From: an uncultured Nitrospiraceae bacterium
GTDB lineage: Bacteria; Nitrospirota; UBA9217
Assembly (NCBI GenBank): GCA_964412455.1
Contig: CAYPOT010000009.1
Span: 5,179 to 69,178 of the forward strand
DNA length: 64,000 nucleotides
Direction of reading: 5' to 3'
A program made the translations under genes and the position numbers. The stretch's first letter is position 1; each line of letters opens with the position of its first letter. A model generated the notes under the pieces. The model made no database searches. It was not told the DNA's origin and saw only the letters and a list, made by a program, of their open reading frames with translations. Positions 1,284-52,644 of the stretch are shown one piece after another.

Positions 1284-1342
1284 GTAGGGGCAACCCTATG
1301 TGGTTGCCCTGCTCCAGGGCGGCCACGCAGGGCCGCCCCTAC
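1284..1342. repeat. REP-A intergenic repeat, copy 1 (GTAGGGGCAACCCTATGTGGTTGCCC-N-GGGCGGCCACGCAGGGCCGCCCCTAC)
   Basis: Near-identical ~60-bp element also at 15530-15576, 34149-34213 and 52586-52644. It has terminal inverted repeats GTAGGGG/CCCCTAC and two internal hairpins. Confidence 0.8.
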
Positions 1343-1356
1343 CTGTTCCTGATCAT

Positions 1357-2517
1357 ATGATTAAAAGGATATCCATACTCGGCTCCACCGGCTCCATCGG
1401 CACTTCCACGCTTGCCGTGGTCGAACGATTCCCGGACCGATTCGCTGTCGTCGCGATCGCGGGAGGGAACAACAGCGAGCTGCTGGAGTCCCAGATCCGG
1501 AAGTTCAAACCCTCGATCGCCGCCATTGCGGGTGAGAAGGCCGCGGAAGAACTGCGGAAGCGGTGCGCGGACCTTCCGGTCACGATCCTCTCGGGCGTCG
1601 AGGGGACGATCCGGGTCGCCGCCGCGGAGAACGCGGACATCACGGTCTCTGCCATTGTCGGCACGGCCGGGCTGGTCCCGACGATGGCCGCGATCCAGGC
1701 AGGCAAGGACATCGCCCTGGCGAACAAAGAGGTGCTCGTCACCGCCGGCGAGCTGGTCATGGCCGAGTGCCGCAGCCGGAAAGTCAGGCTCTTTCCGGTG
1801 GACAGCGAGCACAGCGCCATATTCCAGTGCCTCCATTCCGGCGAACGGGGTGACGTCAGACGTCTCATCCTCACGGCGTCGGGCGGGCCTTTCCGGAACC
1901 ATACGAAGAAGGATCTCGCGAAGGCGACCCTGGCCCAGGCGCTGAAACATCCGAACTGGAACATGGGAAAAAAGATCACCATCGACTCGGCCACCCTGAT
2001 GAACAAAGGCCTCGAGGTGATCGAGGCGCACTGGCTTTTCGGCATGGGACCGGAACAGATCAACGTGCTGGTCCATCCGCAGAGCATTGTGCACTCGCTC
2101 GTCGAATACCAGGACGGCTCCGTCGTGGCCCAGCTCGGAATGCCCGACATGAAGGGGCCCATCGCGTACGCCCTTTCCTATCCGGACCGTCTTCCCGATG
2201 TTGCGCCGGGGCTCGACCTCGCGTCCATCGCAACGCTCACGTTCCAGGAGCCGGACCGCGACCTGTTCCCCTGCCTCGGCTTCGCCTATGACGCCCTCAG
2301 GGCAGGAGGCAGCATGCCGGCGGTGCTCTCCGCCGCGAATGAAGTTGCGGTCAGGTATTTTCTTGAAGAGAAGATCGGGTTCATGGACATCCCCCGCGTG
2401 CTCAAGGCGACCATGGACGCTCATACGCCGGTATCTTTCAAAAGCGTGGACGAGGCGCTCAAGGCGGACCTCTGGGCACGGCATGAAGCCGAGAAGATCA
2501 TTGCGGAGTGCGGGTAG
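1357..2517 (+). CDS. dxr: 1-deoxy-D-xylulose 5-phosphate reductoisomerase
   Basis: MIKRISILGSTGSIGTSTL N-terminus (NADPH-binding) and LANKEVLV motif. ATG at 1357 chosen over the upstream in-frame codon at 1300, which lies inside the REP-A repeat. Confidence 0.9.
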   Translation: MIKRISILGSTGSIGTSTLAVVERFPDRFAVVAIAGGNNSELLESQIRKFKPSIAAIAGEKAAEELRKRCADLPVTILSGVEGTIRVAAAENADITVSAIVGTAGLVPTMAAIQAGKDIALANKEVLVTAGELVMAECRSRKVRLFPVDSEHSAIFQCLHSGERGDVRRLILTASGGPFRNHTKKDLAKATLAQALKHPNWNMGKKITIDSATLMNKGLEVIEAHWLFGMGPEQINVLVHPQSIVHSLVEYQDGSVVAQLGMPDMKGPIAYALSYPDRLPDVAPGLDLASIATLTFQEPDRDLFPCLGFAYDALRAGGSMPAVLSAANEVAVRYFLEEKIGFMDIPRVLKATMDAHTPVSFKSVDEALKADLWARHEAEKIIAECG

Positions 2518-2518
2518 A

Positions 2519-2640
2519 CATGACCCTCACCCCTGCCCCTCTCCCCTGGAGGGAGAGGGAAAAAGGGAGAGGGGGCTTTTTCAACGCCGAGTGCGGAATG
2601 AAAGCCGTCATTCCCCCGAACGCGGGAATCCAGGGTTGTT
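2519..2640. repeat. Two REP-like hairpin repeats: R1 (CACCCCTGCCCCTCTCCCCTGGAGGGAGAGGG...) followed by R2 (GTCATTCCC-N-GGGAATCCAG)
   Basis: R1 is repeated almost exactly at 54903-54975, with variants at 23375-23410, 53213-53265, 57782-57815 and 58160-58192. R2 is repeated at 39673-39700, 39724-39752, 57107-57140, 57160-57195 and 63608-63640. Confidence 0.75.
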
Positions 2641-2759
2641 GCTTGAATATCACGCAGGGTCTTTGACGTATCCGCTTTTATCATAGCTTTTATCGGCTTC
2701 TATCCGTGTCAAAGATTTTGCTCTTAATCTGTGGTCACAACGGTATTTAAGGAGAGACA

Positions 2760-4164: not shown

Positions 4165-5262
4165 ATGAACCTTATCCCCCGCAAGAAGACTCGTTCGATC
4201 GCCCTCGGCAGCGTGAAGATCGGCTGGGGCTCGCCGGTTGCCGTCCAGTCCATGTGCAACACGGACACTCGGGACGCCGACACCACGCTCGTGCAGATCC
4301 GGCGTCTTGAAGCAGCCGGTTGCGAGATCGTCCGGCTTGCCGTGCCCGACACCGAGGCCGCGAAGGCCATCGGGAAGATCCGGAAAGGTACGACCGTTCC
4401 GCTCGTGGCCGATATCCACTTCGATCACCGGCTTGCCCTCGAAGCGGTGAAGCAGGGCGTTGATGGCCTTCGCATCAATCCGGGCAATATCGGAGGCAGG
4501 GACAAGGTCGCGGAAGTAGTGAGCGCCTGCAAGGACCGGCGTCTTCCCATTCGCATCGGGGTGAACGCGGGATCGCTCGAGAAGCACCTGCTAGAAAAGT
4601 ACGGCCACCCCACTCCTGAGGCTATCGTCGAGAGCGCGTTCGGCCATATTCGCATTCTTGAGGACCTGGATTACCGGGAGATCAAGGTCTCGCTCAAGGC
4701 GTCGGACGTTCTGACCACGGTCGAGGCCTACCGCCTGTTTGCGAAGCAGTCGGACTATCCTCTGCACATCGGCATCTCCGAGGCGGGCACGATCCACTCC
4801 GGCACGATCAAGTCGAGCGTCGGCCTCGGGATCCTGCTCGCCGAGGGCATCGGCGACACCATGCGGGTGTCGCTTACCGCGGACCCGGTCGAAGAGGTCC
4901 GCGTGGCCTACGGGATCCTTAAATCGCTCAAGATCCGTGAGCGGGGAGTGAATCTTATCTCCTGCCCCACCTGCGGCAGGACCGAGATCAATATCATCGG
5001 CCTTGCCGAAGAAGTGGAGCGCAGGCTCGGCCATATCACCGAGCCGCTCACCGTCGCGGTCATGGGCTGCGTGGTGAACGGGCCGGGCGAAGCGCGCGAG
5101 GCCGACATCGGCATCGCCGGCGGCAAAGGCGTGGGCATGCTGTTCAAGCACGGCGAGATCGTGAAAAGGTTCGACGAGAAAGAACTGGCGGATGTGCTGG
5201 TGAGGGAAGTTGAGAAGATGGTTCAATTACGTTCAAAGTTCAAGGTTCAAAGTTCAAAGTAG
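4165..5262 (+). CDS. ispG: 4-hydroxy-3-methylbut-2-enyl diphosphate synthase
   Basis: 365 aa; GcpE family features (RIGVNAGSLE, CPTCGRTE Fe-S cysteines). Confidence 0.9.
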   Translation: MNLIPRKKTRSIALGSVKIGWGSPVAVQSMCNTDTRDADTTLVQIRRLEAAGCEIVRLAVPDTEAAKAIGKIRKGTTVPLVADIHFDHRLALEAVKQGVDGLRINPGNIGGRDKVAEVVSACKDRRLPIRIGVNAGSLEKHLLEKYGHPTPEAIVESAFGHIRILEDLDYREIKVSLKASDVLTTVEAYRLFAKQSDYPLHIGISEAGTIHSGTIKSSVGLGILLAEGIGDTMRVSLTADPVEEVRVAYGILKSLKIRERGVNLISCPTCGRTEINIIGLAEEVERRLGHITEPLTVAVMGCVVNGPGEAREADIGIAGGKGVGMLFKHGEIVKRFDEKELADVLVREVEKMVQLRSKFKVQSSK

Positions 5263-5374
5263 GACTTCATTTTGCCGGATACCATTCCTTTTCGTTTGCA
5301 ATCAACGGGGTTCTCTGATAAATTAACACTATCGGCTGTAGGAGCGGTTAAAGCGCGCAGCCTGGAGGCATGCG

Positions 5375-5665
5375 ATGTCGACTATATCGATCAAAGGTGA
5401 TTCTTCGGAAACAGTCAGGTCACTCCTGACAAGTGCGTTGGACAGGGAAAAGCGCATTATTACTGACAGTTTGCGAACAACACGCGATAAGGTGAATGCC
5501 CTGGCAATAATGCTGTCGGTTGATGTTGAAAAGCTGATGCGGGGCGAGATCGAGCATGCTGAATCAAAGGACATGCAATTAATCGAACTCGAAGGGGAAG
5601 TCGAACTGCTCAGGCATCTTGAGACAGAGCTCAGGGAACTTGAAACCCTTGAAATATGCAGATAA
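5375..5665 (+). CDS. Small coiled-coil protein, putative antitoxin partner of the downstream DUF6516-like gene
   Basis: 96-aa ORF overlapping the next ORF by 10 nt, indicating translational coupling. Sits in an accessory-looking region of lower GC. Confidence 0.35.
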   Translation: MSTISIKGDSSETVRSLLTSALDREKRIITDSLRTTRDKVNALAIMLSVDVEKLMRGEIEHAESKDMQLIELEGEVELLRHLETELRELETLEICR

Positions 5666-6051
5666 AGGCATACCTTGACGGAATTCTCGATACACTTGCC
5701 GCGAATCCCCATGTGGAAGCCCAAAGTATTTCCTTTGAAGAACGCCCTCCCGATGCAGTCATCATAACAGGTATTGTCGCATTCATCGACGGCTCAAAAC
5801 TGCATATCAAAGAATTCCTGGTCCTGAAACCCGCTCATGCGGCTATCCTCAAGTATGGCTATCACTACGTGTCGAGTAAAGGTGAATTGATCTTCCGATA
5901 CGACAATGCGCTCGATCCCAAGGCGAGGGGATTGTCGACCTATCCGGAGCACAAACATGCTCCCGACGGATTAAAAGAAACCCGAAGACCATCGTGGCAG
6001 GATATTTTACGAGAAATTTCGAGCTCAATAGGCCAGTACATCAGGAAATAA
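5656..6051 (+). CDS. DUF6516 / TumE-family-like putative toxin
   Basis: 131 aa with ...IFRYDNALDPKARGLSTYPEHKHAPDG, resembling the RYDNAPHh..PHHKH signature I recall for DUF6516 (from memory, not searched). Confidence 0.4.
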   Translation: MQIKAYLDGILDTLAANPHVEAQSISFEERPPDAVIITGIVAFIDGSKLHIKEFLVLKPAHAAILKYGYHYVSSKGELIFRYDNALDPKARGLSTYPEHKHAPDGLKETRRPSWQDILREISSSIGQYIRK

Positions 6052-6069
6052 AACATTTTCGGAGACCCC

Positions 6070-6171
6070 ATGCGTTATTCCCGTTTGTTCATCCCCACCC
6101 TGAAAGAAGCCCCGACCGACGCCGAGGCGGTCTCGCACAAGCTCATGGTGCGCGCGGGCTTCGTGCGATAA
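6070..6171 (+). pseudogene. Displaced 5' fragment of proS (first 33 codons, then stop)
   Basis: atgcgttattcccgtttgttcatccccaccctgaaagaagccccgaccgacgccgaggcggtctcgcacaagctcatggtgcgcgcgggcttcgtgcg duplicates the start of intact proS at 13824. The GGAGA RBS is retained. Confidence 0.85.
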
Positions 6172-6210
6172 TCGGCGCCCTGCGGCAGCGTATGATGTAA
6201 ATAAATTTGA

Positions 6211-6239
6211 TTGACAATGGTTAGTATGAATATTATAAT
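6211..6239 (+). promoter_or_regulatory. Sigma70-like promoter TTGACA-N17-TATAAT upstream of the vapB-like gene
   Basis: Exact consensus hexamers at 6211-6216 and 6234-6239 with a 17-nt spacer, inside a short AT-rich block about 50 nt upstream of ATG 6289. Confidence 0.5.
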
Positions 6240-6288
6240 AAAGTATGATATATATTTTTGAATCGTATCTGATGGCAGGAGCGGGACA

Positions 6289-6534
6289 ATGAAAACGCTG
6301 ATGAGCGAGAGGGGTCAGGTGGTGATCCCGAAAAAGATCCGGGAGACCATTCACCTCCATAAAGGCGACGAACTGGAGATCGAGGTGCGCGATGAGACGA
6401 TCGTGCTGAAGCCGCTTCGCAGGTTCAAGGCCAAAAAATGGCAGGATTACGCCGGAATCGGTGAAGGCATCGTGGCTGCCCATCTCAAGGACAAGAAGAA
6501 GGAAAAAGCCGATGAAGATGCTTATTCTCGATAG
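6289..6534 (+). CDS. AbrB/MazE/SpoVT-domain antitoxin (VapB-like)
   Basis: MKTLMSERGQVVIPKKIRETIHLHKGDELEIEV is a swapped-hairpin AbrB-type DNA-binding motif. It overlaps the downstream PIN gene. Confidence 0.7.
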   Translation: MKTLMSERGQVVIPKKIRETIHLHKGDELEIEVRDETIVLKPLRRFKAKKWQDYAGIGEGIVAAHLKDKKKEKADEDAYSR

Positions 6535-6931
6535 CTACGCACTGCTCTGTCTTTTCGATAAAAAGCGCAGGACGGAGAAGGAAGCGATAATGTCCTATCT
6601 TGAGGATGCGGGCAAAGGCAAGGCGAAGCTTTATATCAGCAAGATCAACGAAGGTGAAGTGTTTTATAAGCTCTATAAGTATTTCGGCGCCGAGATCGCG
6701 ACCGGATTCAGGGCAGACCTCAAGCGGGGAATGTTCCCCCTGCATGTCGTGCCCGTGAATGATAAACGAATAGACGAAGCGTCCGTGATTAAGGCGAAAT
6801 ATCCGGTATCCTACGCCGACGCATTTTGCATAGAACTTGCCAGGGACATGAACCTGCCTGTGGTGACAGGTGATCCGGAATTCGAGGCTGTGAAGGACCT
6901 GATAAAGCTACAGCCGCTTGCGGAACAGTAG
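6512..6931 (+). CDS. PIN-domain toxin (VapC-like)
   Basis: MKMLILDSYALL... (conserved acidic D near the N-terminus) ...TGDPEF; ~140 aa, overlapping the antitoxin stop. Confidence 0.65.
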   Translation: MKMLILDSYALLCLFDKKRRTEKEAIMSYLEDAGKGKAKLYISKINEGEVFYKLYKYFGAEIATGFRADLKRGMFPLHVVPVNDKRIDEASVIKAKYPVSYADAFCIELARDMNLPVVTGDPEFEAVKDLIKLQPLAEQ

Positions 6932-6949
6932 CTCCTATGCGGACTTTCC

Positions 6950-7056
6950 GCACGGCGAGATCGTGAAGAAGTCCGATGAGAAGGAATTGGCCGATGTGCT
7001 GGTGAGGGAAGTGGAAGATTTAGTTCGGCAAAAAAATAAAAGGTAAGATCGTATTT
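6950..7056 (+). pseudogene. Displaced 3' fragment of ispG (last ~35 codons)
   Basis: cacggcgagatcgtgaagaagtccgatgagaaggaattggccgatgtgctggtgagggaagtggaag duplicates ispG 5150-5215. It encodes ...HGEIVKKSDEKELADVLVREVEDLVRQKNKR*. Confidence 0.8.
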
Positions 7057-7115
7057 CGTTTGGTGTCTCTTACATTGATAAAATGCACCAATGTTGTTTA
7101 AGAGAGATTTCAATT

Positions 7116-8435
7116 ATGAAAAAATATTATGATCCTTTATATGGTGAAATCAAGCTAGATGAGCTTGTCTTTAGTATTATTGAAAAATGTCCTGAAATAA
7201 AGCGGCTCAGATATGTCGGCCTCATGAATTTCAAATCTTTGAGCATGCTACCTTTAACAAGCATCACGAGGTTAGAACATACAATTGGTCTATCGTACCT
7301 AGCACAATTATTTGCCGACTCAAATTCTTTTTCAAAAACATCGAGGAACAATTTAATCGTCGCTTCACTTTTTCATGATGTTAACAGCGCGTCATTTGGA
7401 CATGCTATTGAATGGGCAGTGGATCGCTATACGCCTTATAACCACGAAAAGGAAACCGAGTGGTTAGCTGATAAAGAAAAGACCTCGTTTTTAAACAAAA
7501 AGCCAATATTTATTGAGCAATATGGTGTGACAAGATATGATTTGGAAAAAGAATATGGATTTAACTTGACTAAGGCTTATCAAATTATTAACGGAGTGGA
7601 TTCATTTACAATTAACAATAATGGAATAGATCTAGATAACGTTGACAACGTTTTTCGTATGGGTTTATACATGGGGCTGGAACCTTTCGAAAAGGGATGC
7701 CCTGTAAGGTTAGCCAAGAGTTTAAAGATAGTTGACGGGCGTGATAATTTTGTTATTAAAGAGGAAGCTATTGACTTAGTGATGACATGGTATCAATTAA
7801 GAGCGAATATTTACGGGAGATTTATTTACTCCGAAGAGTATATGGGTTATGAATATCTTTTATTTCAACTTATTGCTGAGTATGCAAAACACGTTGAGTT
7901 TGATAGCATAAGAAATCTTTTTAATTACACGGATGAAAATCTATTGTGGCATTTTTATGATAAGAAGAATTCGCTCCCGTCGGTAAGTAATATAGCGAGC
8001 ATGTTATTATTGCATGATATTCCTAAGACATACGCAATATTGCGCTCAGATGAATTTGACAAAAAAGAAAAACTAATTAAACCTGGAATTCTAGATGCTA
8101 TTGCCCAAAGTGTGAGTGAGTATTTGCACAATTCTAAAGAGGTTTCGAACACATCATCAGGGGAAATATTTTTGCATTTAACGACAGACGATAGAAAAAC
8201 CAACAGACAAATTGACTTTTATGTAGAGAAGAGTGGAGAAGTTGTTAAGCAATCTATAGGTTTCGATAAGAGATACATTGTTATTGGTGTATTGGGGAAA
8301 AAAAATCTGTCAGAAAAAGTAAAAACGCTAATCGCAGAAAAAACCATTGAAAAGCTTAGAAGCAGTAATTTGGGTAATTTCGATAATATTGAATTCGTCG
8401 AATCAAATGCGTTAAAGCAAAAAGTGCTATTCTAG
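7116..8435 (+). CDS. HD-domain phosphohydrolase, dGTPase/SAMHD1-like (dNTP triphosphohydrolase-like)
   Basis: DPLYGEIKL...IKRLRYVGLMNF...TRLEHTIGLSYLA...LIVASLFHDV, pattern of Dgt/SAMHD1 N-terminal HD region. First gene of the AT-rich operon. Alternative ATG at 7083. Confidence 0.55.
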   Translation: MKKYYDPLYGEIKLDELVFSIIEKCPEIKRLRYVGLMNFKSLSMLPLTSITRLEHTIGLSYLAQLFADSNSFSKTSRNNLIVASLFHDVNSASFGHAIEWAVDRYTPYNHEKETEWLADKEKTSFLNKKPIFIEQYGVTRYDLEKEYGFNLTKAYQIINGVDSFTINNNGIDLDNVDNVFRMGLYMGLEPFEKGCPVRLAKSLKIVDGRDNFVIKEEAIDLVMTWYQLRANIYGRFIYSEEYMGYEYLLFQLIAEYAKHVEFDSIRNLFNYTDENLLWHFYDKKNSLPSVSNIASMLLLHDIPKTYAILRSDEFDKKEKLIKPGILDAIAQSVSEYLHNSKEVSNTSSGEIFLHLTTDDRKTNRQIDFYVEKSGEVVKQSIGFDKRYIVIGVLGKKNLSEKVKTLIAEKTIEKLRSSNLGNFDNIEFVESNALKQKVLF

Positions 8436-8451
8436 CCGCACCTTTTAATTT

Positions 8452-9660
8452 ATGGAAAAGAAAAAAGATATTTCGCATTTTGATTTGCTTGATTGGAATT
8501 TTACTAGAGAAGATTCGAGACTCTACTTGCACAATTTCTGTTGGTATCCTTCAAGATTCATCCCAATAATCCCAGCCCACTTAATTCAAGCCCTAAGCAA
8601 GACCAATGAAACTGTGCTGGATCCGTTTTGCGGAATAGGGACTACGTTAGTCGAGGCTTTGAAGCAGAGGCGAAATGCAATTGGCGTTGATTTAAATCCA
8701 ATCGCATGCTTTGTCTCTAAAACTAAAGGAAAAATATTGACAGGTCATAAAGTAAACCTGTCTCTAATTGAAGGCTTGTTAGAAAACCTGGCGCCGTTGA
8801 GTGGTGATGATCTATTCACAAAAAAACGCACAGGTAGAGGTCATTATAATTTACGGGAGAAGTCAATCCCAAATTACGCTGTCAATGTGGAATGGTTTCA
8901 TCCCGAAACTTTAAAAATGCTTTCGCATATATACTATTCTGTCGAAGATCTTCCGAGAGGACTTACGAGGGATATATGCAAAATATTTTTTATTTCAATT
9001 CTCATGCAGTCCTCCGGGCACGATTTGAATAAGCCATACACTTATTATGCAGACAATGTGAAGCCTAAAAAAGAAAAATTGATTAAAGACGCCTACAAAC
9101 TATATGTGCAAAAATTGGATAAATTTTTATGTGAATATAAGCTCATAGAGTTACCCGAGAAAAACAGGCTGGATTTTGCCGTATACAACGAAGATGCGAG
9201 AGGGTTAGAAGGTTTGGTGGATAAAAAAGTTGACCTTATAGTTACTTCGCCTCCGTATTTAAATGTTACTGACTATACAACTGGCTTTAGGTTAGCTCAT
9301 CTGTGGTATAGCTTTCAAAAGGATATGCGTATTGAGGACATTAAAAGAAGAGAAATTGGTGCTCGATACAGGCGGAAGTCACGTAACAGTTTAAATGAAT
9401 ATGTCGGGGATATGCAGTCAGTCCTTTGCAAAATGGACAGCGTTTTAAAGACCAATGGGTATCTTTGCTTGATTCTTGGTGAATCACAAAAATACTCCAA
9501 GATTGTGAATAAGATAATAATGGACTTTATGTCGAACGAATTGCGGTTAGAATATATTGATTCTTTTAGTCGTGAGATAATAAAAAAATTCTTCATTCAT
9601 CCAAATGGTGGGGGTGTCAGTACAGAAGAAATTATTATTTACAGAAAAAAAAGAAAGTGA
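8452..9660 (+). CDS. DNA methyltransferase, N4/N6 family (motif I FxGxG then motif IV SPPY)
   Basis: VLDPFCGIGTTLVEA...IGVDLNP (AdoMet motifs I-III) and DLIVTSPPY (catalytic motif IV) about 200 aa later. SPPY is typical of N4-cytosine methyltransferases. Confidence 0.65.
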   Translation: MEKKKDISHFDLLDWNFTREDSRLYLHNFCWYPSRFIPIIPAHLIQALSKTNETVLDPFCGIGTTLVEALKQRRNAIGVDLNPIACFVSKTKGKILTGHKVNLSLIEGLLENLAPLSGDDLFTKKRTGRGHYNLREKSIPNYAVNVEWFHPETLKMLSHIYYSVEDLPRGLTRDICKIFFISILMQSSGHDLNKPYTYYADNVKPKKEKLIKDAYKLYVQKLDKFLCEYKLIELPEKNRLDFAVYNEDARGLEGLVDKKVDLIVTSPPYLNVTDYTTGFRLAHLWYSFQKDMRIEDIKRREIGARYRRKSRNSLNEYVGDMQSVLCKMDSVLKTNGYLCLILGESQKYSKIVNKIIMDFMSNELRLEYIDSFSREIIKKFFIHPNGGGVSTEEIIIYRKKRK

Positions 9661-10766
9661 GGTGTGTCTGCGCTATGGAAAATCACATCGTCATGATGCC
9701 TAATATGATAATACCATATGGCTACGAAATAGTGCCAATTATGGCTTATCCTGCTGGTTTTATCTACAGATTTAGATTTGATGAGGAATGGCTTTCAGAT
9801 AGGATAAAAGCCGATGTGTCTTCATTGTCAGCGAAAAAGGGTTATATCGTTTTCAGAGATCCAGAAAGCGCTACGTTTTACCCCATAAGGCATATCACAA
9901 TCAAGGTGGCGCAAAGAATAGGTAAATACTATTATTTTGAATATGAATTAAATGAAATATTTGACTTTGATTCTAACGAAACATGGAGGACAAAGCAAAT
10001 AACTCAATTTAATGACTCTTTTAAGAGTTTTCATGAATCAGAGTTTAAAGACAACATTCCTGGTAAAGATATGAAGCCCCTCGTATTTTTGACTAATTTT
10101 GCACCAACCATAAATAATGAACATGTCCAATTTACAAATCCATTGGAAAATGAGTTGGAGCGATGGGGAAATATAATTTCAATTATTAAAAATATAAAGT
10201 TTTATGAAAACGTAGAATTTATAAAAATCCTTGATATAGTGCCAATGAAAAAGCGAGACGAGGAAGTGCAAGTTAAAGAGAATTATTTATTTGTACAAGA
10301 AGACGGCGATTATAAGTTGAGGATATTTCAGCTTAAGCCTAAAGGATCGGTAGAAAGGATCGAACCGAAAGATATTGAAGTAAGATCAGACGACAAATAT
10401 ATTAGCGTCATAAGAAATAAACAACGCGCAGTAGGGAAGTATGATGTGCTAAGTTTCGTTTTCCGCGTGCATGCCGGCAGTGGAGGCCAGAGAAGTTATT
10501 TAGATGTTCTACATGCTCCCAAAACAGAAGCAGCCCAGTACATTGCGCCGACACTGTATCTTCCAGTAGCTATTCAAGGAAAAAGAAAGCTAATGGTTAT
10601 AAGAATTTTATTTGCCTTTGTCTTAGTCTCATTCTATCTTTTTCCTGAGGCTATAAGTTTCATATCTGATCACAGGATTGTGAAGGATTTTGCTATGGTC
10701 CTCTTCACTATTTCTGTGATAGATATTCTGAAAGAAATACGGGACCTGTTTAAGGCGAATAGATAA
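9657..10766 (+). CDS. Hypothetical protein with soluble N-domain and two C-terminal transmembrane helices
   Basis: No recognisable motif. C-terminus LMVIRILFAFVLVSFYLFPEAI...VKDFAMVLFTISVIDIL is strongly hydrophobic. Start overlaps the MTase stop (ATGA) and its stop overlaps the next start. Confidence 0.45.
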   Translation: MRCVCAMENHIVMMPNMIIPYGYEIVPIMAYPAGFIYRFRFDEEWLSDRIKADVSSLSAKKGYIVFRDPESATFYPIRHITIKVAQRIGKYYYFEYELNEIFDFDSNETWRTKQITQFNDSFKSFHESEFKDNIPGKDMKPLVFLTNFAPTINNEHVQFTNPLENELERWGNIISIIKNIKFYENVEFIKILDIVPMKKRDEEVQVKENYLFVQEDGDYKLRIFQLKPKGSVERIEPKDIEVRSDDKYISVIRNKQRAVGKYDVLSFVFRVHAGSGGQRSYLDVLHAPKTEAAQYIAPTLYLPVAIQGKRKLMVIRILFAFVLVSFYLFPEAISFISDHRIVKDFAMVLFTISVIDILKEIRDLFKANR

Positions 10767-12907: not shown

Positions 12908-12939
12908 TTAGTTGCTCTGCTAAACGACAAAACACAAAA

Positions 12940-13782: not shown

Positions 13783-13823
13783 GGAATGTCGGCATATAGA
13801 AATTGCATGCACAGGGGGTATTG

Positions 13824-15518: not shown

Positions 15519-15529
15519 TTGCAGGGGAA

Positions 15530-15576
15530 ACCCTATGTGGTTGCCCTGATCCGGGCGGCCACGCAGGGCCGCCCCT
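15530..15576. repeat. REP-A repeat, copy 2 (variant GCAGGGGAAACC...)
   Basis: aaccctatgtggttgccctgatccgggcggccacgcagggccgcccctac immediately after the proS stop. Confidence 0.8.
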
Positions 15577-15607
15577 ACATTAGATCAGGCGAGAGGGGCA
15601 AGGGGAA

Positions 15608-23368: not shown

Positions 23369-23430
23369 TGCCTCTCCCCTCGCGGGAGAGGGCAGGGTGA
23401 GGGGGCATGGTTAGATAATCATACACTATA

Positions 23431-34148: not shown

Positions 34149-34213
34149 GTAGGGGCAACCCTATGTGGTTGCCCTCATTCGGCGTTCGGGCGGCCACGCA
34201 GGGCCGCCCCTAC
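34149..34213. repeat. REP-A repeat, copy 3, overlapping the 3' end of hydD
   Basis: gtaggggcaaccctatgtggttgccctcattcggcgttcgggcggccacgcagggccgcccctac. The last ~13 codons of hydD (...VGAALRGRPNAE*) are encoded by the repeat. Confidence 0.8.
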
Positions 34214-35017
34214 TGTCTTCCGCATTTCCGAAGCGTGCCCCGCGAACCCGCCGAAGCACTCCAGCCGGTCGAGCATGGTCTCCTCGGAGAACCCGTACTT
34301 CTTCATGATCTCTTGCATCTGCTCCACATTGGCGTCCACGGTCGGGCCGCGGCAGCCCCAGCAGCCGAAGCGGCTGTTCGGGCACCAGGAGTCGCACCCG
34401 CCGCGGGTGATGGGGCCGAGACAGGGTTCGCCCAGGTCGAAGAGGCAGGTATTCTCGTTCGCCTTGCATTCCATGCAGACGGGATACTTGGGCTGGACGA
34501 TGGACTTGCCGAGCACTACGTTCGTGACGATCTTCTCGACCTCTTCCTTCTTCACCGGGCAGCCGAAGATCTGGAGATCCACTTTCACGAAGTCCTCGAG
34601 CGGCCTTGCGGTGTCGTTGGTCTCGATGGGGTGGGCGCCGTACACCTCTTTTTTCACCCAGGCGGGGTCCTTGAAGCGGTTCTTGAGCTGGTTCACGCCG
34701 CCGAAGCAGGCACAGGACCCGAAGGCTACGAGTACCTTGGCCCTTTCCCGTATTGTCTTCAGCCGCTCGATCTCGTCGGCGCGGGTGACGCTCCCCTCCA
34801 CAAAGGCGATCGCGTAGTCGTCTTTCTCCTCGGTCATGGCCTCACGGAATGTCCGCACGTCGACGAGGGAAAGAAAGTCGAGAAGCGTGGCTTCGTTGTT
34901 CACGAGCTGGAGCTGGCAGCCCTCGCAGGACGAGAGCTCGAAGAAAGCGACCTTCGGACGGGGGATGGGAATGCCGAGATAGGTCCGTTGTGTCGGTTCG
35001 CTCTTATTCACGATCAT
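34175..35017 (-). CDS. hydD: [NiFe] hydrogenase small (delta) subunit
   Basis: FELSSCEGCQ N-terminal cluster-binding motif and further Cys clusters. Confidence 0.8.
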   Translation of the reverse strand: MIVNKSEPTQRTYLGIPIPRPKVAFFELSSCEGCQLQLVNNEATLLDFLSLVDVRTFREAMTEEKDDYAIAFVEGSVTRADEIERLKTIRERAKVLVAFGSCACFGGVNQLKNRFKDPAWVKKEVYGAHPIETNDTARPLEDFVKVDLQIFGCPVKKEEVEKIVTNVVLGKSIVQPKYPVCMECKANENTCLFDLGEPCLGPITRGGCDSWCPNSRFGCWGCRGPTVDANVEQMQEIMKKYGFSEETMLDRLECFGGFAGHASEMRKTVGAALRGRPNAE

Positions 35018-35334
35018 CGCTCCTATAAAGCGGCACTATGAGCTTCAGATTTTCTCCAAGAAGCTGTGAATCAAGTCTTTGACACTGACCAACAGTAGGC
35101 GCTTCTAAGCGAGACCCTGAGAACGGCTATGATAACTGCGGATACAGCAAGAACTCTAAATATTTTATTTGAGAGTATTACAGAAAAAAGATCCGATGCC
35201 AGCGGGCACTATGCCTCATCCTGTTGATCCTGCAATCTTGTCTAATCCTGCTTCTTCAGGATTTTCATCCGCTTCTTCTGTGTCAAAGGTTCAATCTGTG
35301 TCCTCAGTGTCCAAAAAACGCAGTTCTGGTTGTA

Positions 35335-39659: not shown

Positions 39660-39760
39660 CAGTAAAAAAAGTCGTCATACCCGCGAAAGCGGGTATCCAG
39701 GGAGCAAGAATATGCTAGAGAATACTGGATTCCCGTTTACACGGGAATGACGGAATATAC
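39660..39760. repeat. Pair of R2 REP hairpins in opposite orientation (BIME-like)
   Basis: gtcatacccgcgaaagcgggtatccag and ctggattcccgtttacacgggaatgac. Confidence 0.7.
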
Positions 39761-42977: not shown

Positions 42978-45566
42978 ATGAAAAGCATCAAATGGCTCTT
43001 TGCAGGTGTGCTGCTTCTGGGTATTTCGTTCGTCCTTGCGGCATGCGGAGGAGGCGGAGGTGGAGGAAGCGCCCCACCGGCGACGTACACCATTTCGGGC
43101 GTGGTAAGCGGCGCCACCACGACGGGGGTGACGATCAACCTGACCGGCGCGTCAACGGCGACTACGACCACCGCTACGGACGGGAGCTACAGTTTCACGG
43201 GGCTCGCGAACGGTAGTTATACGGTGACACCATCCAAGTCCTTGTTTACCTTCAATCCAACAAGTTTGGCTGTAAGCGTGAGCGGTGCGAACGTGACCGG
43301 CAGGAACTTTACGGCCATATCCAACCCAACTGGTATAACCTACAGCATTTCCGGTACGGTAAGCGGGGCCAGCGGTGTGACGATCAACCTGAGCGGCGAC
43401 AACACCGGATCCGTGGTAACGGGCGGGACATACACTTTCTCCGGCCTTGTGGCAGGGAGCTACACGGTGACACCTTCCCTCTCCGGTTATACATTCAGCC
43501 CCACAAATAGAGCCATAACGTTGTCAGCGGATTCAACGGCGAATGATTTCGTTGCGATGGCGATACCGGTGGCCTACAGCATCTCCGGCAATGTCAGCGG
43601 CACAACGGGCGTGACAATCACTGTGACCGGCGGCACGGCCAATACGGGCGCCATCACTGACGGTTCTGGCAACTACACCGTCACGGGCCTCTATGACGGA
43701 AACTACACGGTCACGCCGTCCAAGACGGGATTTACGTTCAACCCAATTAGTACCGCCGTACCCATTAGCGGTGCGAACGTGACCGGCAAGAACTTTACGG
43801 CTACGGCCAATACCGCGCCCACCTACACCCTTTCCGGCGCGGTAAGCGGTCCTTATTTCGAGGGCGTGACGATCACGATGACCGGTGACGGGACCGGGAC
43901 GACGACCACCAACGCGAGCGGAAATTACAGCTTTGCGAACCTGCCGGCGGGGACGTATACCCTTACCCCGTCTCTGGCGGGCTACACCTACAGCCCTGCC
44001 GCTCCGGCGGTTGCTGTCAGCGCAAACACGGTACAGAACTTCACTGCTTCGTCAGCGGTAGTTTCCTATAGCATCTCCGGCACGGTGAGCGAGACCACCG
44101 CGAAGACCGGCCGTATCTATATCCAGGCGTACTGGAGCACCTGCCCGGATTGCGGTCCCGTCGCGGGAACGAGCCTTGCCTCCGCGGGGACGTACACGAT
44201 CAGAGGCCTCCAGTCCGGAGACTATGTGGTGGTTGCGGGAATGGATTATATGGACACGGGAGCAATAAATGCCACTAACCCGGCTGGGGGTCCGGTTGCG
44301 GCTACTATTGCATCGGCCAATCTTGCCGGTGTCAACATTACTGTCGCCGACCGGACGCTCCCTGCGCCGGTAACCCCGACCGGGCTGATGATCTTTCCGT
44401 CAAGCGGCGCGGCATTTGTTGTCTGGGATACGCCTTGGAATGCTAACTACGAAGAGATCGCTACATCGTATAAGATTTACTGGGGCACGGACACTGCCGC
44501 ATCGAACGGCGGTACCATAACCGTCGCCGCGCGTGACGATGCCCACTATCTCCAGGCCGGCCTCACCAACGGTGCCATGTATTACAAGATAACCGCGCTG
44601 GTGGACGCCACGGAAAGCACGGCGTCTACGGTAGTAGCGGTGACCATCGGCGCCACGACCGGAGCCAACACCGTGTCCGGCACGGTCACTTTCCCCGGAA
44701 CGGCCACGGGACCGATGGTGGTCGGCGTATACAGCGATACCATCGGTATTTATTTCACCACCATCGCGAGTCCCGTGAGCCCCCAGTCGTACAGCGTTGC
44801 CGGGGTCACTGACGGGAGCTACGATGTTTTCGCCGTCATTGACATGAACAGCAACGGAGTGTTTGGCAGCGGGGATATAGGCAGCACGGAGGACAATCCG
44901 GTTACGGTGAGCGGCAACACCAACACAACGAAGAACCTCACCCTCTCCTCGGCCAGCGCGAGCGCCAAAGTCACCACGGACCACCAGTTCGATGGGACGA
45001 ACCACAACTACCAGGTCCAGTCCGAAGTGGAGGATGGGGTCAAACGCGCTGTTGCCGTGACGCTGGTCTCGGGTCTGAACGTGGCCGTGCCGTCCGACAT
45101 GGGCAAGGAATGGAACTTCCAGATGAATCAGTGGCTTGGCGCCACAAGCCCGACCGTGGGGGATAGCTATGTATTCAAGGTGACCTACTCCGACGCGACC
45201 ACTGAGACCCTATCGGGCAGCGTGACCGCGGTGCTCGGAACGACTGCTATGGCGCAGAACCTGGCAGCCGTGACAGATGGGACGGGTGGCAGCAGCGCTT
45301 CGGTTCCGTTGTTCACCTGGGCCGCGCCCGCATCTCCCCCGGCGACCTACACTTATAGAGTGAATCTCTATGGCAATGACGCTAACTGGTGGTACCCGCA
45401 GGATAACGGTCTGCCGAGCACGACGACTCCGCTTCAAGTGCTGTATAATGCGGATGGCCGGGCTTCCAAAGCAAGCCTGACGCAGGGGACCACGTACACC
45501 TGGCAAGTTAAAGTTCAAGACGCCGCTAGGAATAGCGCGACGCGTCAAGCCACCTACAGTTATTAG
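42978..45566 (+). CDS. Large surface lipoprotein with ~6 carboxypeptidase-regulatory-like/Ig-like repeats and fibronectin-III-like region
   Basis: Lipobox LAACGGG, then repeated TYTISGVVSG...GSYTVTPSKSLFTFNP...VSGANVTGRNFTA modules. Confidence 0.7.
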   Translation: MKSIKWLFAGVLLLGISFVLAACGGGGGGGSAPPATYTISGVVSGATTTGVTINLTGASTATTTTATDGSYSFTGLANGSYTVTPSKSLFTFNPTSLAVSVSGANVTGRNFTAISNPTGITYSISGTVSGASGVTINLSGDNTGSVVTGGTYTFSGLVAGSYTVTPSLSGYTFSPTNRAITLSADSTANDFVAMAIPVAYSISGNVSGTTGVTITVTGGTANTGAITDGSGNYTVTGLYDGNYTVTPSKTGFTFNPISTAVPISGANVTGKNFTATANTAPTYTLSGAVSGPYFEGVTITMTGDGTGTTTTNASGNYSFANLPAGTYTLTPSLAGYTYSPAAPAVAVSANTVQNFTASSAVVSYSISGTVSETTAKTGRIYIQAYWSTCPDCGPVAGTSLASAGTYTIRGLQSGDYVVVAGMDYMDTGAINATNPAGGPVAATIASANLAGVNITVADRTLPAPVTPTGLMIFPSSGAAFVVWDTPWNANYEEIATSYKIYWGTDTAASNGGTITVAARDDAHYLQAGLTNGAMYYKITALVDATESTASTVVAVTIGATTGANTVSGTVTFPGTATGPMVVGVYSDTIGIYFTTIASPVSPQSYSVAGVTDGSYDVFAVIDMNSNGVFGSGDIGSTEDNPVTVSGNTNTTKNLTLSSASASAKVTTDHQFDGTNHNYQVQSEVEDGVKRAVAVTLVSGLNVAVPSDMGKEWNFQMNQWLGATSPTVGDSYVFKVTYSDATTETLSGSVTAVLGTTAMAQNLAAVTDGTGGSSASVPLFTWAAPASPPATYTYRVNLYGNDANWWYPQDNGLPSTTTPLQVLYNADGRASKASLTQGTTYTWQVKVQDAARNSATRQATYSY

Positions 45567-45620: not shown

Positions 45621-45861
45621 GGTATGCCAGGCATGACGCTCTGTACTTCGATACAGGCCGGTCAGGTGTGGCGCCTGACTGGCGACTTGGAGGTGCAAAT
45701 CCTCTACGGACCTTGATGGGAGGAACCGTTAGCCGAACAGCAAGGGTGTCCGGGGCGACCCGGAATCTGAAGGAAGCTGTAAGCAAAGTCCCGGCCTGAC
45801 GAACAGAAATCGCCTATCCGCCCATTGCACAGCGGACCTTAAAGCTATGCGGGGGAGGTCA

Positions 45862-45890
45862 TTGACATCCTGCTCGCCGGTCCGTATACT
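45862..45890 (+). promoter_or_regulatory. Sigma70-like promoter TTGACA-N17-TATACT upstream of the T2SS operon
   Basis: TTGACA at 45862-67 and TATACT at 45885-90, ~40 nt before gspC ATG 45929. Confidence 0.45.
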
Positions 45891-45928
45891 GCTTTCGGAA
45901 AGGCGGTATAGCGCGCTGCCGGTGCCTG

Positions 45929-46486
45929 ATGAAGATCGACAATGACAGGATGCACAAAGTATTCGCAGCTCTTCTATTCATAGCGGGGAGCATGCTCGCC
46001 GCCATGGCCGCGCCTGTACCGGTCTGCCATGCGCAGACATCGGCGTACCGCCTGGTCGGAACGGTCGAGAGCGGGCCGTTCACCGGCGCGGTGCTGGACG
46101 ACTCCACGGACGGCCAGACCTTTTACCGGTTGAACGAGAAACTGGCTGACGAATCGCGGATCGTGAAAGTGAAGAGCGATCATGTCGTCCTGAAATGGCC
46201 GGACGGCGCAACGACCGAGCTTTACGTATCACAGGGAAGTGCGGTCAGTGCGGCCGGAGCTGCGCAACCGCGATCAACGCCGGACGTTCGGAACAGAGTG
46301 AAGCCTGTTCAGCCGCCATCGGTCCGTCCGGAGCCGAGCCCGGGCGGCGACGCCTTGGAGGAAAGACGCGCAAGGATAGAGCAAAACCGCAGGGATCTGG
46401 ATGCCAGGTTTGACAAGCAGAAAGGCCCGAGACAGGGAAGCAGCAGAAAGAGGAGCCGCTCCTCCGGCACAGACGAGGGGGACTGA
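45929..46486 (+). CDS. GspC-like protein 1 (GspC N/HR domain only, no PDZ)
   Basis: Signal-anchor plus YRLVGTVESGPFTGAVLDDSTDGQTFYRLNEKLADESRIVKVKSDHVVLKWPDG, paralogous to the next gene's HR domain. Confidence 0.55.
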   Translation: MKIDNDRMHKVFAALLFIAGSMLAAMAAPVPVCHAQTSAYRLVGTVESGPFTGAVLDDSTDGQTFYRLNEKLADESRIVKVKSDHVVLKWPDGATTELYVSQGSAVSAAGAAQPRSTPDVRNRVKPVQPPSVRPEPSPGGDALEERRARIEQNRRDLDARFDKQKGPRQGSSRKRSRSSGTDEGD

Positions 46487-51174: not shown

Positions 51175-51179
51175 TAAGC

Positions 51180-51300
51180 GCCAAATGACAAGAATCAAAT
51201 CACAAATAAATTTCAATTTTCAAACGCCAAATTCCAACCGTTTGGGATATTGATATTTGAATTTTGGAGCTTATTTGAGATTTGCTATTTGTAATTTGGA
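51180..51300. repeat. AT-rich CAAAT/ATTTG hairpin repeat (sister of 4044-4160)
   Basis: caaatgacaagaatcaaatcacaaataaatttc ... atttgaattttggagcttatttgagatttgctatttgtaatttgg. Confidence 0.6.
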
Positions 51301-51314
51301 GCTTGTACCAATCC

Positions 51315-52532
51315 ATGCCCATCTACGAATACAAAGGCGTCAACGCAATCGGCAAGAGCATCTCCGGCGTCCTGGACGGCGAGAGCCTGAAGACCGTGAA
51401 GGCGAAGCTCAGGAAGGACGGCATCGTCGTTCTTGAGGTCCGTGAGGGCAGCGCGGTGCGGGCGGCGCGCTCACGGGAGTTCCACTTCGGCGGGGGAAGG
51501 GTCAAGGCCGGTGACCTCGCCAATGCCACGCGCCAGCTTGCCACGCTCCTTTCGGCCGGCCTCCCGCTCATGGAGGCGCTGAACGTGCTTGTGGACCAGG
51601 AGGAGGGCCAGGCGCTCAAAGGAGCGCTCGCGTCGGTGCGCGATTCGGTGCGCGGCGGATCCTCCCTCGCCGACGCCCTCAAGACGAACGCAAAGGTCTT
51701 CTCCCCGCTCTATGGGAACATGGTGACGGCCGGCGAGGCGAGCGGGACCCTCGAGATCACGCTGGACCGGCTCGCCGATTTTCTCGAGGAGCAGGTCCGT
51801 TTCCAGGGCAGGCTCACGGCGGCGCTGGCGTATCCCGCGCTCATGACCGTCATCGGCATCGGCGTTCTGTTCTTCCTGTTCAGCTTTGTCCTGCCCCGGG
51901 TCGTCGGGATGTTCGAGGATATGCGGCAGCAGCTCCCGTTCATTACCGTGGTCCTTCTGGCGGTGGTGCGGGTCCTGTCGGGATTCTGGTGGCTGATCCT
52001 GCTTACGGTGGGTGGCGCGGGTTGGTACGTGCAGCGGTATTTCAGCACGGCCGCGGGCAAGGTGAACCTGGACGGTTGGCTGCTACGCATGCCGGTGTTC
52101 GGGACGCTCATCCGGATGATCGCCGTGTCGCGGTTCACCCGGACCCTGGGGACGCTGCTGCAGAGCGGGGTGCCGACGCTCACGGCGCTGGACATCGTGC
52201 AGAACGTCATCGGGAACACGGTGCTTGCCGAGGCGGTCCGGAAGGCGCGCGAGAACGTGCGCGAGGGCGAATCCATCGCCGATCCCCTGCGGCGGAGCCG
52301 CCTCTTCCCGCCCGTGGTGGTCCAGATGATCTCGGTCGGTGAAAAGAGCGGCGAACTGGAAAAAATGCTCCTTAAAGTGTCGGATTCCTTCGACCGGACC
52401 GTGGAGTCGCGCATCGCCGCACTGATGTCCCTCGTGGAACCGGCGATCATCCTGGTGATGGGGCTCATTATCGGATTCATCGTCATCGCCATCCTGCTGC
52501 CGATCCTGCAGATGAGCTCGGCGGTGAGATAA
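51315..52532 (+). CDS. gspF: Type II secretion system inner-membrane platform protein
   Basis: MPIYEYKGVNAIGKSISG N-terminus, two GspF repeats. ATG 51315 preferred over 51282. Confidence 0.85.
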   Translation: MPIYEYKGVNAIGKSISGVLDGESLKTVKAKLRKDGIVVLEVREGSAVRAARSREFHFGGGRVKAGDLANATRQLATLLSAGLPLMEALNVLVDQEEGQALKGALASVRDSVRGGSSLADALKTNAKVFSPLYGNMVTAGEASGTLEITLDRLADFLEEQVRFQGRLTAALAYPALMTVIGIGVLFFLFSFVLPRVVGMFEDMRQQLPFITVVLLAVVRVLSGFWWLILLTVGGAGWYVQRYFSTAAGKVNLDGWLLRMPVFGTLIRMIAVSRFTRTLGTLLQSGVPTLTALDIVQNVIGNTVLAEAVRKARENVREGESIADPLRRSRLFPPVVVQMISVGEKSGELEKMLLKVSDSFDRTVESRIAALMSLVEPAIILVMGLIIGFIVIAILLPILQMSSAVR

Positions 52533-52585
52533 GTCGATTGCGGATTGCGGAGTGCGGAACGAGAACAGCCGATCCTGCGGTAAAC

Positions 52586-52644
52586 CGTAGGGGCAACCCC
52601 ATGTGGTTGCCCCCGGGCGGGCGGCCACGCAGGACCGCCCCTAC
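52586..52644. repeat. REP-A repeat, copy 4
   Basis: gtaggggcaaccccatgtggttgcccccgggcgggcggccacgcaggaccgcccctac between gspF and gspG, preceded by GATTGCG heptamer repeats. Confidence 0.8.

Follow-up and report, generated by a model that had tools for sequence, protein, structure and literature searches.

The window, the 64,000-nt stretch of contig CAYPOT010000009.1 analysed here, carries four near-identical copies of a short repeat, REP-A (58-65 nt), all in one common orientation. Each copy is a head-to-head pair (doublet) of two related 26-nt REP units, and on the + strand the A-type unit lies to the left and the G-type unit to the right in all four doublets. The copies and their neighbouring genes are as follows.

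1284-1342, + strand: REP-A doublet 1, flanked by cdsA (453-1259) and dxr (1357-2517); units 1284-1309 (A-type, +) and 1317-1342 (G-type, read on the - strand), linker TGCTCCA at 1310-1316
1300-1356, + strand: spurious N-terminal extension of dxr, 19 codons from a GTG inside doublet 1
15521-15578, + strand: REP-A doublet 2, beginning 2 nt past the proS stop (15518); left unit 15521-15546, linker 15547-15552, G-type unit 15553-15578
32775-34049, - strand: hydA, large [NiFe] hydrogenase subunit (PF00374), 99 nt downstream of the REP
34149-34213, + strand: REP-A doublet 3, flanked by the minus-strand genes hydD and hydA; units 34149-34174 (A-type) and 34188-34213 (G-type), linker of 13 nt at 34175-34187
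34175-35017, - strand: hydD, small (delta) subunit of a group 3b-like [NiFe] hydrogenase (PF01058, 280 aa)
34175-34213, - strand: REP-encoded HydD tail, V-G-A-A-L-R-G-R-P-N-A-E and a TGA stop
52587-52644, + strand: REP-A doublet 4, flanked by gspF (51282-52532) and gspG (52701-53135); units 52587-52612 (A-type) and 52619-52644 (G-type, 1 mismatch), linker at 52613-52618

The four-copy repeat described in the first-pass annotation is real: both half-patterns occur four times each at three or fewer mismatches, against 0 expected (100 shuffles). A strand-neutral unit pattern, GTAGGGGCRRCCCNNNGTGGYYGCCC, found eight units in the whole window, forming four inverted pairs, and GTAGGGGC gave no further occurrence in the window outside the four copies. 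Two of the earlier coordinate pairs, 1284-1342 and 34149-34213, were kept, while 15530-15576 was corrected to 15521-15578 and the start at 52586 to 52587. The linkers measure 7, 6, 13 and 6 nt, not 4-12 nt as first given. Neighbours assigned by Pfam support the placement of all copies at gene boundaries (4/4 doublets), the order being cdsA/REP/dxr, proS/REP/small ORF, hydD/REP/hydA (minus strand) and gspF/REP/gspG. No additional REP-A was present in the 5.3 kb of public contig upstream of the window, and the four doublets lie within ∼69 kb of contig (the window plus this upstream piece). In a search of the whole window with Rfam 15, no family was found at the REPs at the gathering threshold. 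The sole Rfam match in the window was a group II intron domain at 45749-45930.

The REP-A unit consists of an unpaired GTAG foot and an 8-bp stem that opens with three G-C pairs and encloses a 6-nt loop. The stem base, GTAG-GGGC...GCCC, is common to all units in the window, and the foot is GTAG in seven of the eight. The remaining one, GCAG, belongs to the degenerate left unit of doublet 2, GCAGGGGAAACCC, which has two mismatches (the foot and one position in the stem); this doublet is in early decay. The units of a doublet are diverged sisters whose differences are compensatory within each hairpin, with stems GGGCAACC/GGTTGCCC versus GGGCGGCC/GGCCGCCC. Compensatory maintenance of the stem was also seen across four pair combinations in units drawn from a genome scan with a pairing-neutral pattern (RR...YY). 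Both variable stem positions were Watson-Crick paired in 138 of 143 units among the matches listed, compared with 33% expected from marginal frequencies, and the combinations among these matches were GG/CC (66 units), AA/TT (37), GA/TC (23) and AG/CT (12).

An unpaired 5' GTAG followed by a hairpin in single-stranded DNA is the shape of substrate bound and cut by REP-associated tyrosine (HUH/Y1) transposases (RAYTs). Single REP-A units, folded computationally as single-stranded DNA, form the 8-bp hairpin at -8.8 and -11.1 kcal/mol and leave the 5' GTAG unpaired. Folded as RNA, the doublet has its energy minimum in a single long hairpin (-37 to -47 kcal/mol, z-scores -3 to -7), predicted for all four copies on both strands, with doublet 1 at -46.4 kcal/mol. 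For the doublet as DNA, the computed two-hairpin and long-hairpin folds are nearly isoenergetic. The element had been described as a double hairpin. The two unit hairpins do fold; however, since the long hairpin is the RNA optimum and the DNA folds are so close in energy, the double hairpin competes with the long hairpin as an alternative fold. A role as intrinsic terminator was considered and rejected: none of the copies is followed by a T-run on either strand, and a terminator/promoter scan of 33900-35400 did not flag the REP.

At the hydrogenase locus the minus-strand hydD ORF (35017 to 34175) ends in ...EMRKT-VGAALRGRPNAE and the stop. All codons from GTA on are made up of the G-type REP unit and the linker, with the TGA stop inside the inter-unit linker. 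REP-A thus supplies the end of hydD including its stop, as had been proposed, with 12 codons rather than ∼13. HydD is 280 aa long versus 267-284 aa (mostly 269-274 aa) for its homologues, which are named sulfhydrogenase subunit delta. The best 120 of these stop 4-12 residues past a conserved (E/A)(M/L)R(K) in unrelated, mostly basic tails, and the homologue ending can be summarised as ...EMRKT[IV]K.K and the stop. In three REP-free relatives with 90-92% amino acid identity (L124/L125, L126/L127 and L128), no REP unit is present in the hydD-site DNA and DNA similarity is lost at the GT of the Val codon. Because the homologue tails are unrelated and the REP-free relatives diverge at this codon, the comparison with relatives lacking the insertion upholds a remodelled C-terminus: the tails differ, and the same tail was not found without the repeat. 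None of the REP-free relatives compared provided a clean empty/filled site pair at hydD, since their intergenic DNA is rearranged and full of other simple repeats. One relative has a REP at the same hydD site in another reading frame, resulting in a different tail, RRGGPAWPPE, and an orthologous copy of doublet 3 (L239) differs from that in the window by 4-nt, 7-nt and 1-nt indels. The REP-supplied hydD tail is probably a harmless side-effect of a kind known for REPs.

Doublet 1 also gives rise to an ORF that extends dxr upstream, which had been called spurious. The Pfam DXP_reductoisom domain begins at residue 5 of the protein that starts at ATG 1357, the gene callers of the public contig adopt this 386-aa form, and in the REP-free relative L178 dxr begins directly after cdsA. 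All three support the ATG at 1357 as the true dxr start and the upstream extension as spurious.

GTAG-tagged REP families typically comprise more than 100 dispersed, mostly extragenic copies per genome. A REP-A-specific 24-nt core pattern matched at least 120 metagenome loci. Among the matches listed there are at least 123 doublets in at least 102 distinct flanking contexts, counted across metagenomes and not in one genome. Again among the matches listed, the boundaries are sharp, with Y immediately before GTAG and R immediately after CTAC, 98 of the 123 doublets show either of the two most frequent intact left ends, starting with GTAG, and linker lengths group at 6-8 or 17-20 nt. By a crude ORF-based classification, 20 of 47 classifiable contexts were convergent, 23 unidirectional and 4 divergent. 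This bias toward gene 3' ends agrees with that reported for GTAG REPs (PMC3733652). The unit consensus also recurs among metagenome-assembled genomes labelled with many phyla (matches listed from a genome-collection scan).

Neither the window nor the 5.3 kb of public contig upstream of it contains a RAYT gene. At three metagenome loci (L134, L186 and L190), on other contigs, a RAYT-like HUH/Y1 gene has a REP-A doublet upstream and/or in frame inside it. All three genes contain a G-to-A doublet in frame, encoding VGAALRGRP...GQPHRVAPT in L190, and L186 and L190 have a second doublet directly 5' of the start codon. VGAALRGRP is the peptide that the G-type unit adds to HydD, and it is encoded within RAYT genes in both L190 and P0172. 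Close to the subclass 2.4 pattern, the motifs are NHFH, WQ and YVVNNP in L190, NHFH, WQ and YIMYNP in L186, and DHFH, WQ and YIRDNP in L134. The proteins matched NF047646, 'REP-associated tyrosine transposase', at 55.7-58.2 bits (E ∼1e-15), below the cut-off of 80, in an alignment of two stretches divided by the REP insert. PF01797 (Y1_Tnp) scored 16.6-20.1 bits, below its cut-off of 23. Most of the close homologues P0121-P0240 have a precomputed PF01797 match, and the L190 protein is 53% identical to one so annotated, P0179. Homologues were collected with a synthetic query in which the N- and C-terminal parts of the L098 RAYT were joined via a REP-A-encoded linker; VGA...APT-type linkers occur in 105 of the best 120, and the exact A-type peptide VGATLCGCP in 0 of these 120. 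A phmmer search of solved structures with the L190 protein gave no meaningful match. From these sequence features, we regard the three genes as candidate cognate RAYTs.

Taken together, REP-A is very probably a GTAG-headed REP family in head-to-head doublets, REPIN/BIME-like and spread by a RAYT-type transposase. The choice between 'REP or MITE' that had been left standing is settled as REP by the unpaired GTAG foot with its hairpin, the inverted doublets, the dispersal over at least 102 contexts, the association with RAYT-like genes and the lack of DDE-type anatomy with terminal inverted repeats. A RAYT of the TnpA-REP subclass 2.4 type would have spread the doublets in trans, acting on single-stranded DNA. 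Doublets would have been inserted mostly just 3' of genes and then inherited vertically, and one of them has hit the last hydD codons, exchanging a short native tail and stop for 12 REP codons and a stop in the linker. The anatomy, dispersal and covariation of REP-A, the REP-derived HydD tail, the presence or absence of copies in relatives and the linkage of the doublet to RAYT-like genes elsewhere are direct observations. Mobilisation by a RAYT in this organism is inferred, as would be any influence of the RNA hairpins on operon mRNA.

It is also possible, at a clearly lower probability, that REP-A copies are primarily host-selected hairpins acting in cis, as stabilisers of mRNA 3' ends, processing barriers or protein-binding sites, with their mobile origin secondary and purifying selection keeping the REP sequence at each site. 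The strong predicted RNA hairpins (-37 to -47 kcal/mol) and the gene 3'-end bias of the contexts are consistent with this, as is the finding that three copies out of four (those at cdsA-dxr, hydD-hydA and gspF-gspG) separate genes that run in one direction and probably form operons. However, orientation is indifferent to transcription (13:10 among metagenome contexts and 3:1 among the window copies), and without a T-run after the hairpin the copies are no intrinsic terminators.

The orthologous sites bear on both sides of this question. In relatives, the doublet at site 1 is present in L156, L173 and L220. At site 2, L159, L178, L129 and L244 carry a doublet with intact GTAG foot at the corresponding place, where orthology rests on BLAST coordinates and match positions. 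Site 4 has orthologous copies in L212, L131 and L130. Doublets are kept at all four sites in relatives and are near-identical, although third codon positions of the flanking genes show 53-81% identity, close to synonymous saturation, and other intergenic DNA is unalignable. These relatives, however, were fetched through an exact 24-nt REP match; persistence is therefore over-sampled and conservation inflated, and homogenisation by a transposase or gene conversion would give the same picture. In addition, copies are absent (L178 at site 1, L124-L128 at site 3), right-truncated (L155 at site 4) or decaying (window copy 2) while the operon is retained. That the doublets are actively maintained and not merely tolerated seems to us rather unlikely. 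If it were true under unbiased sampling, it would mean either site-specific selection for hairpins in operon architecture or continuing RAYT-driven homogenisation, the latter accompanied by horizontal spread of one REP/RAYT system across phyla.

A MITE of a classical DDE insertion sequence, with GTAGGGG/CCCCTAC as terminal inverted repeats, would share the terminal inverted symmetry, the small size and the intergenic dispersal of REP-A. We consider it highly improbable. Reading of the flanks of the four window copies and of the metagenome flank listing found no direct duplication that could represent a target site, the only preference being the Y before GTAG and the R after CTAC. Each half also folds into a hairpin of its own and varies in a compensatory way, which a terminal inverted repeat does not need, and the sole transposase-like genes beside or around REP-A are HUH/Y1 RAYT-like. 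Chance or convergent GC-rich intergenic hairpins, such as independent terminators, would account for the hairpin nature alone and are already refuted by 26-nt patterns found four times each against 0 expected and by near-identical 58-65-nt elements in at least 102 unrelated contexts.

As a REP family, REP-A can be compared with several known systems. GTAG-tagged REPs have an unpaired GTAG, a 6-13-bp stem, sub-families with complementary stem changes and a predominance of HH dimers; they lie between unidirectional or convergent ORFs and overlap ORF ends or reside inside ORFs, encoding VGA... peptides (Di Nocera, De Gregorio & Rocco 2013, PMC3733652). REP-A agrees with this super-family in foot, complementary stem changes, dimers, location and VGA... 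peptides. The nearest named example is GTAG-11 of Geobacter uraniireducens, which encodes VGAGCPRPGRGDRAP inside Gura_3370 (PMC3733652); the match is one of description, with the REP-A GGGCAACC/GGGCGGCC stems and 6-nt loop set aside, and the host of REP-A is probably a member of Nitrospirota. Geobacter, suggested at first by the flavour of the repeat and the genes present, was rejected as host, since cluster mates of GspG at 90% identity carry the labels of Nitrospiraceae/Nitrospirota metagenome-assembled genomes. With REPINs (Bertels & Rainey 2011, PMC3116915; 2017, PMC5581495) REP-A shares inverted REPs, a short spacer and the possibility of one long hairpin, as well as the occurrence as doublets and not singlets (4/4 here) kept at orthologous sites in related lineages. 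Unlike REPINs, the REP-A arms are distinct sub-types that leave A.C mismatches in the long hairpin, so the hairpin of each arm is preserved better than the long hairpin. The RAYTs associated with REP-A also belong to another class than the Pseudomonas and E. coli types.

Subclass 2.4 is characterised by a 'canonical long REP' whose stem has three G-C pairs at its base, with GT[AG]G as the 5' foot, in-frame REP insertions between HuH and Y, the motifs NH[IFV]H, WQ and YIxNNP, and occurrence in many phyla (Quentin, Siguier, Chandler & Fichant 2018, PMC6006769). REP-A in L134, L186 and L190 and the 120 homologues show the same features, with protein motifs close to those listed, the RAYT loci being on other metagenome contigs and not in this genome; the putative assignment to the subclass was made from motifs and architecture and not through the HMMs or tree of that study. 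E. coli BIMEs (Y and Z2, TnpA-REP YafM) resemble REP-A as alternating inverted pairs of two related sub-types within operons, and have been linked to mRNA stability (PMC2817692, PMC6006769). In contrast, E. coli REPs have bulged stems and a RAYT of subclass 2.2, while the RAYT-like proteins of REP-A fall under the NF047646 equivalog cut-off.

REP-A forms a clearly delimited REP sub-family, built as an A-type/G-type heterodimer and accompanied by candidate cognate RAYT genes; it opens no new question. Its setting is uncultured lineages, probably Nitrospirota, from sediments, soils and groundwater. It is an annotation hazard, as it makes false start codons (dxr) and adds tails to real proteins (HydD VGAALRGRPNAE here, RRGGPAWPPE in one relative), and its peptide words VGA...RP and G.P...APT also occur in unrelated proteins, where they can give rise to spurious similarity. 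At hydD it provides a clean natural case in which a REP replaces the stop codon of a gene without apparent harm.

The window was scanned with a strand-neutral pattern, GTAGGGGCRRCCCNNNGTGGYYGCCC, which detected eight units arranged as four inverted doublets of REP-A, a family of GTAG-footed REP doublets. The first-pass annotation had claimed a repeat of four copies, and this was confirmed: each half-pattern was found four times at ≤3 mismatches, versus 0 expected from shuffled sequences. No further GTAGGGGC exists in the window beyond the four elements. With neighboring genes assigned by Pfam, the doublets matching the strand-neutral pattern are:

1284-1342, + strand: REP-A copy 1, cdsA/dxr boundary
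15521-15578, + strand: REP-A copy 2, boundary of proS and a 47-codon ORF
34149-34213, + strand: REP-A copy 3, between hydB-hydG-hydD and hydA, minus-strand genes of a group 3b-like [NiFe] hydrogenase
52587-52644, + strand: REP-A copy 4, gspF/gspG boundary

Copy 2 had been recognized as an element but placed at 15530-15576, a span that missed its degenerate left end, GCAGGGGAAACCC. The linkers of copies 1-4 are 7, 6, 13 and 6 nt. A single orientation (+ strand) is shared by the four doublets, a bias that with four copies is only suggestive; since GC skew is positive over nearly the entire window, the window may sit in one replichore. REP-A is absent from the extra 5.3 kb of contig upstream, and a motif search of the 64-kb window found no HUH motif of the type present in REP-associated tyrosine transposases (RAYTs). 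Proteins that cluster with the window's GspG at ≥90% identity carry Nitrospiraceae/Nitrospirota MAG labels.

The left, or A-type, unit of REP-A is GTAG-GGGCAACC-CTATGT-GGTTGCCC, and the right, or G-type, unit is GTAG-GGGCGGCC-CTGCGT-GGCCGCCC on the other strand. These sister units differ at six positions, by transitions only; the four differences in the stem are compensatory inside each hairpin (AA/TT versus GG/CC). As single-stranded DNA, each unit is predicted to fold into an 8-bp hairpin with GTAG free. For the doublet as RNA, the predicted minimum-energy fold is one long hairpin (-37 to -47 kcal/mol), whose DNA counterpart is predicted to be about equal in energy to a two-hairpin fold. Covariation was measured with a pattern allowing any purine/pyrimidine combination at two variable stem positions. 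Both variable pairs are Watson-Crick in 138 of 143 units from the 120 genome-collection loci listed, compared with 33% expected from marginals; therefore, the conserved structure is the small single-unit hairpin. Since no T-run follows the hairpin at any of the four copies, none appears to resemble an intrinsic terminator, and an Rfam scan of the window gave no family at the four sites. As RNA hairpins within operons, the doublets may have secondary effects.

A metagenome search with a REP-A-specific pattern, ATGTGGTTGCCC-N(2-20)-GGGCGGCCACGC, retrieved at least 123 doublets in at least 102 distinct flanking contexts. Among the matches listed, doublet boundaries are sharp (GTAG...CTAC, preceded by Y and followed by R) and linker lengths fall into two classes, 6-8 nt and 17-20 nt. 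By a crude ORF-based classification, 47 contexts comprised 20 convergent, 23 unidirectional and 4 divergent, the unidirectional ones dividing 13 versus 10 by REP-A orientation. These contexts favor gene 3′ ends and show no preferred orientation, as has been reported for GTAG REPs (PMC3733652). A loose unit pattern, which gives phylum scatter among the matches listed and no copy counts, occurred in MAGs labelled Acidobacteriota, Chloroflexota, Clostridia, Desulfobacterota-like lineages, Nitrospirota, Planctomycetota, Bacteroidota, Gammaproteobacteria and others.

REP-A, with its dispersed GTAG-footed doublets and covarying stems, is physically associated with RAYT-like genes. In three metagenome loci retrieved with REP-A, a gene encodes the motifs HUH (NHFH or DHFH), WQ and Y(I/V)xxNP. 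The three proteins matched NF047646 ('REP-associated tyrosine transposase') at E ~1e-15, under the equivalog cut-off, and fell just under the gathering score of Pfam Y1_Tnp; that of locus L190 is 53% identical to the homologue P0179, which has a precomputed PF01797 match. Each of the three genes carries a G-to-A doublet in frame; that of L190 encodes VGAALRGRP...GQPHRVAPT, of which VGAALRGRP is common to the HydD end in the window. A second doublet lies directly upstream of the RAYT-like start codon in L186 and L190, and within 5.7 kb L186 carries four doublets plus another unit on its own. Linkers of the VGA...APT type were present in 105 of the best 120 homologues of an L098-based query. Quentin et al. 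2018 (PMC6006769) report this arrangement for TnpA-REP subclass 2.4 only: the REPs are long, have a stem base of three G-C pairs and are inserted in frame between HuH and Y, and the distribution is scattered over phyla. A GTAG REP family listed for G. uraniireducens by Di Nocera et al. (2013) lies within a gene and there encodes VGAGCPRPGRGDRAP. We propose that a subclass-2.4-type RAYT, working on single-stranded DNA, would mobilize REP-A doublets in trans. In L098 (7275-8000; MAG labelled delta proteobacterium), the in-frame linker of a RAYT-like gene contains one A-type-like unit and eight tandem GQARGPEN repeats, then ...GQARGPAPT; within the transposase ORF, half-REP units thus form an expanded array.

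By BLAST, the window is syntenic with metagenome contigs at 72-89% nucleotide identity.

Occupancy of REP-A sites in relatives
Site 1 (cdsA-dxr): present in L156, L173, L220; absent from L178
Site 2 (after proS): present in L159, L178, L129, L244; absent or altered in none
Site 3 (hydD-hydA): present in L239; absent from L124-L128
Site 4 (gspF-gspG): present in L212, L131, L130; right-truncated in L155

Since sites are occupied in relatives whose flanking genes have third-codon-position identities of 0.53-0.81, the insertions are apparently old and vertically inherited, with occasional loss or decay. Persistence is over-sampled, since 24 nt of REP had to match exactly for these relatives to be fetched; the sole unbiased observations are site 1 of L178 and the hydD relatives, where REP is absent.

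The hydD ORF (35017..34175, - strand) terminates in ...EMRKT-VGAALRGRPNAE and a stop. From the GTA codon on, its DNA is the G-type unit and then the linker, which contains the TGA stop. The best 120 HydD homologues (75-92% identity) end 4-12 residues past a conserved ...A.EMRK in tails that are unrelated and for the most part basic, for example TITAK, TVKVKV and AVKVKG. In three close relatives (L124/L125, L126/L127 and L128), hydD DNA is alignable as far as GT in the GTA (Val) codon and divergent beyond, and no REP unit was found. The earlier proposal that the repeat remodelled the HydD C-terminus is supported. L239, at 88.7% nucleotide identity in this region, has a doublet at the same place, which differs from copy 3 by 4-nt, 7-nt and 1-nt indels; because of these, its HydD ends differently, in ...EMRKTV-RRGGPAWPPE. 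That one insertion is read in two frames, with the operon kept in both lineages, speaks against selection on the tail sequence. GTAG REPs overlapping ORF ends or inside ORFs are documented (PMC3733652). Upstream, hydG and hydD are separated by a 317-nt AT-rich spacer (35018-35334, - strand) with a terminator-like hairpin and T-run at 35209-35196, minus strand; the two genes overlap in L124 and L128 and lie ~22 nt apart in L239. The spacer may be a further small insertion, or else an sRNA locus.

The mechanically called dxr ORF starts at GTG 1300, within copy 1. This extension, suspected earlier, is spurious, because in the ATG-1357 protein the DXP_reductoisom domain (Pfam) begins at residue 5, public gene calls give the 386-aa form, and in L178, without REP at site 1, dxr directly follows cdsA.

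Several other features were observed. A low-GC island (5262-13823; ~43-44% GC versus 54-61% elsewhere) lies between ispG (4165-5262) and proS (13824-15518), which are directly adjacent in L178. At or inside its left end are duplicate fragments of the ispG 3′ end (5148-5224 ~ 6950-7026) and the proS 5′ end (6070-6167 ~ 13824-13921). The island, whose public gene calls include MazE/PIN, TumE, an N6/N4 methylase, an HD protein and a carbamoyltransferase, resembles one or two nested integrated elements. Degenerate heptamer arrays (GATTGCG/GAGTGCG/GATTTCG) and their complement occur at 34096-34127, 52530-52561, 53754-53840 and 54190-54285, a short way left of the A-type unit in copies 3 and 4. In the metagenome contexts listed, the motif is in 21 of 102 left versus only 2 of 102 right flanks, an asymmetric association. 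A second dispersed family, a hairpin CCTCTCCCCT-nnn-GGGAGAGG with GGGTGAGGG beside it, has two 80-nt copies (2502-2581 and 54888-54967; 96% identical) and others at 23371-23408, 53207-53244 and 58161-58181; among the matches listed, many unrelated MAG loci have similar sequences flanking their REP units. A third, hairpin CGTCATTCCCgcgaaaGCGGGAATCCAG, lies at 2605-2633, 39671-39755 and 57104-57188 and includes an 85-nt inverted pair with 80% complementarity. Rfam matched group II intron domains D1-D4 (RF02001) at 45749-45930 (+; 53.6 bits, E = 6e-8), directly after an 862-aa ORF (42978-45566). Three tandem 213-219-nt repeats at 29896-30540, 61-71% identical to the reference copy, lie in a 948-aa ORF (27723-30569) and are probably a repeated protein domain.

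REP-A belongs to an already well-described kind of element, and its use lies chiefly in annotation and in the clean example it provides.
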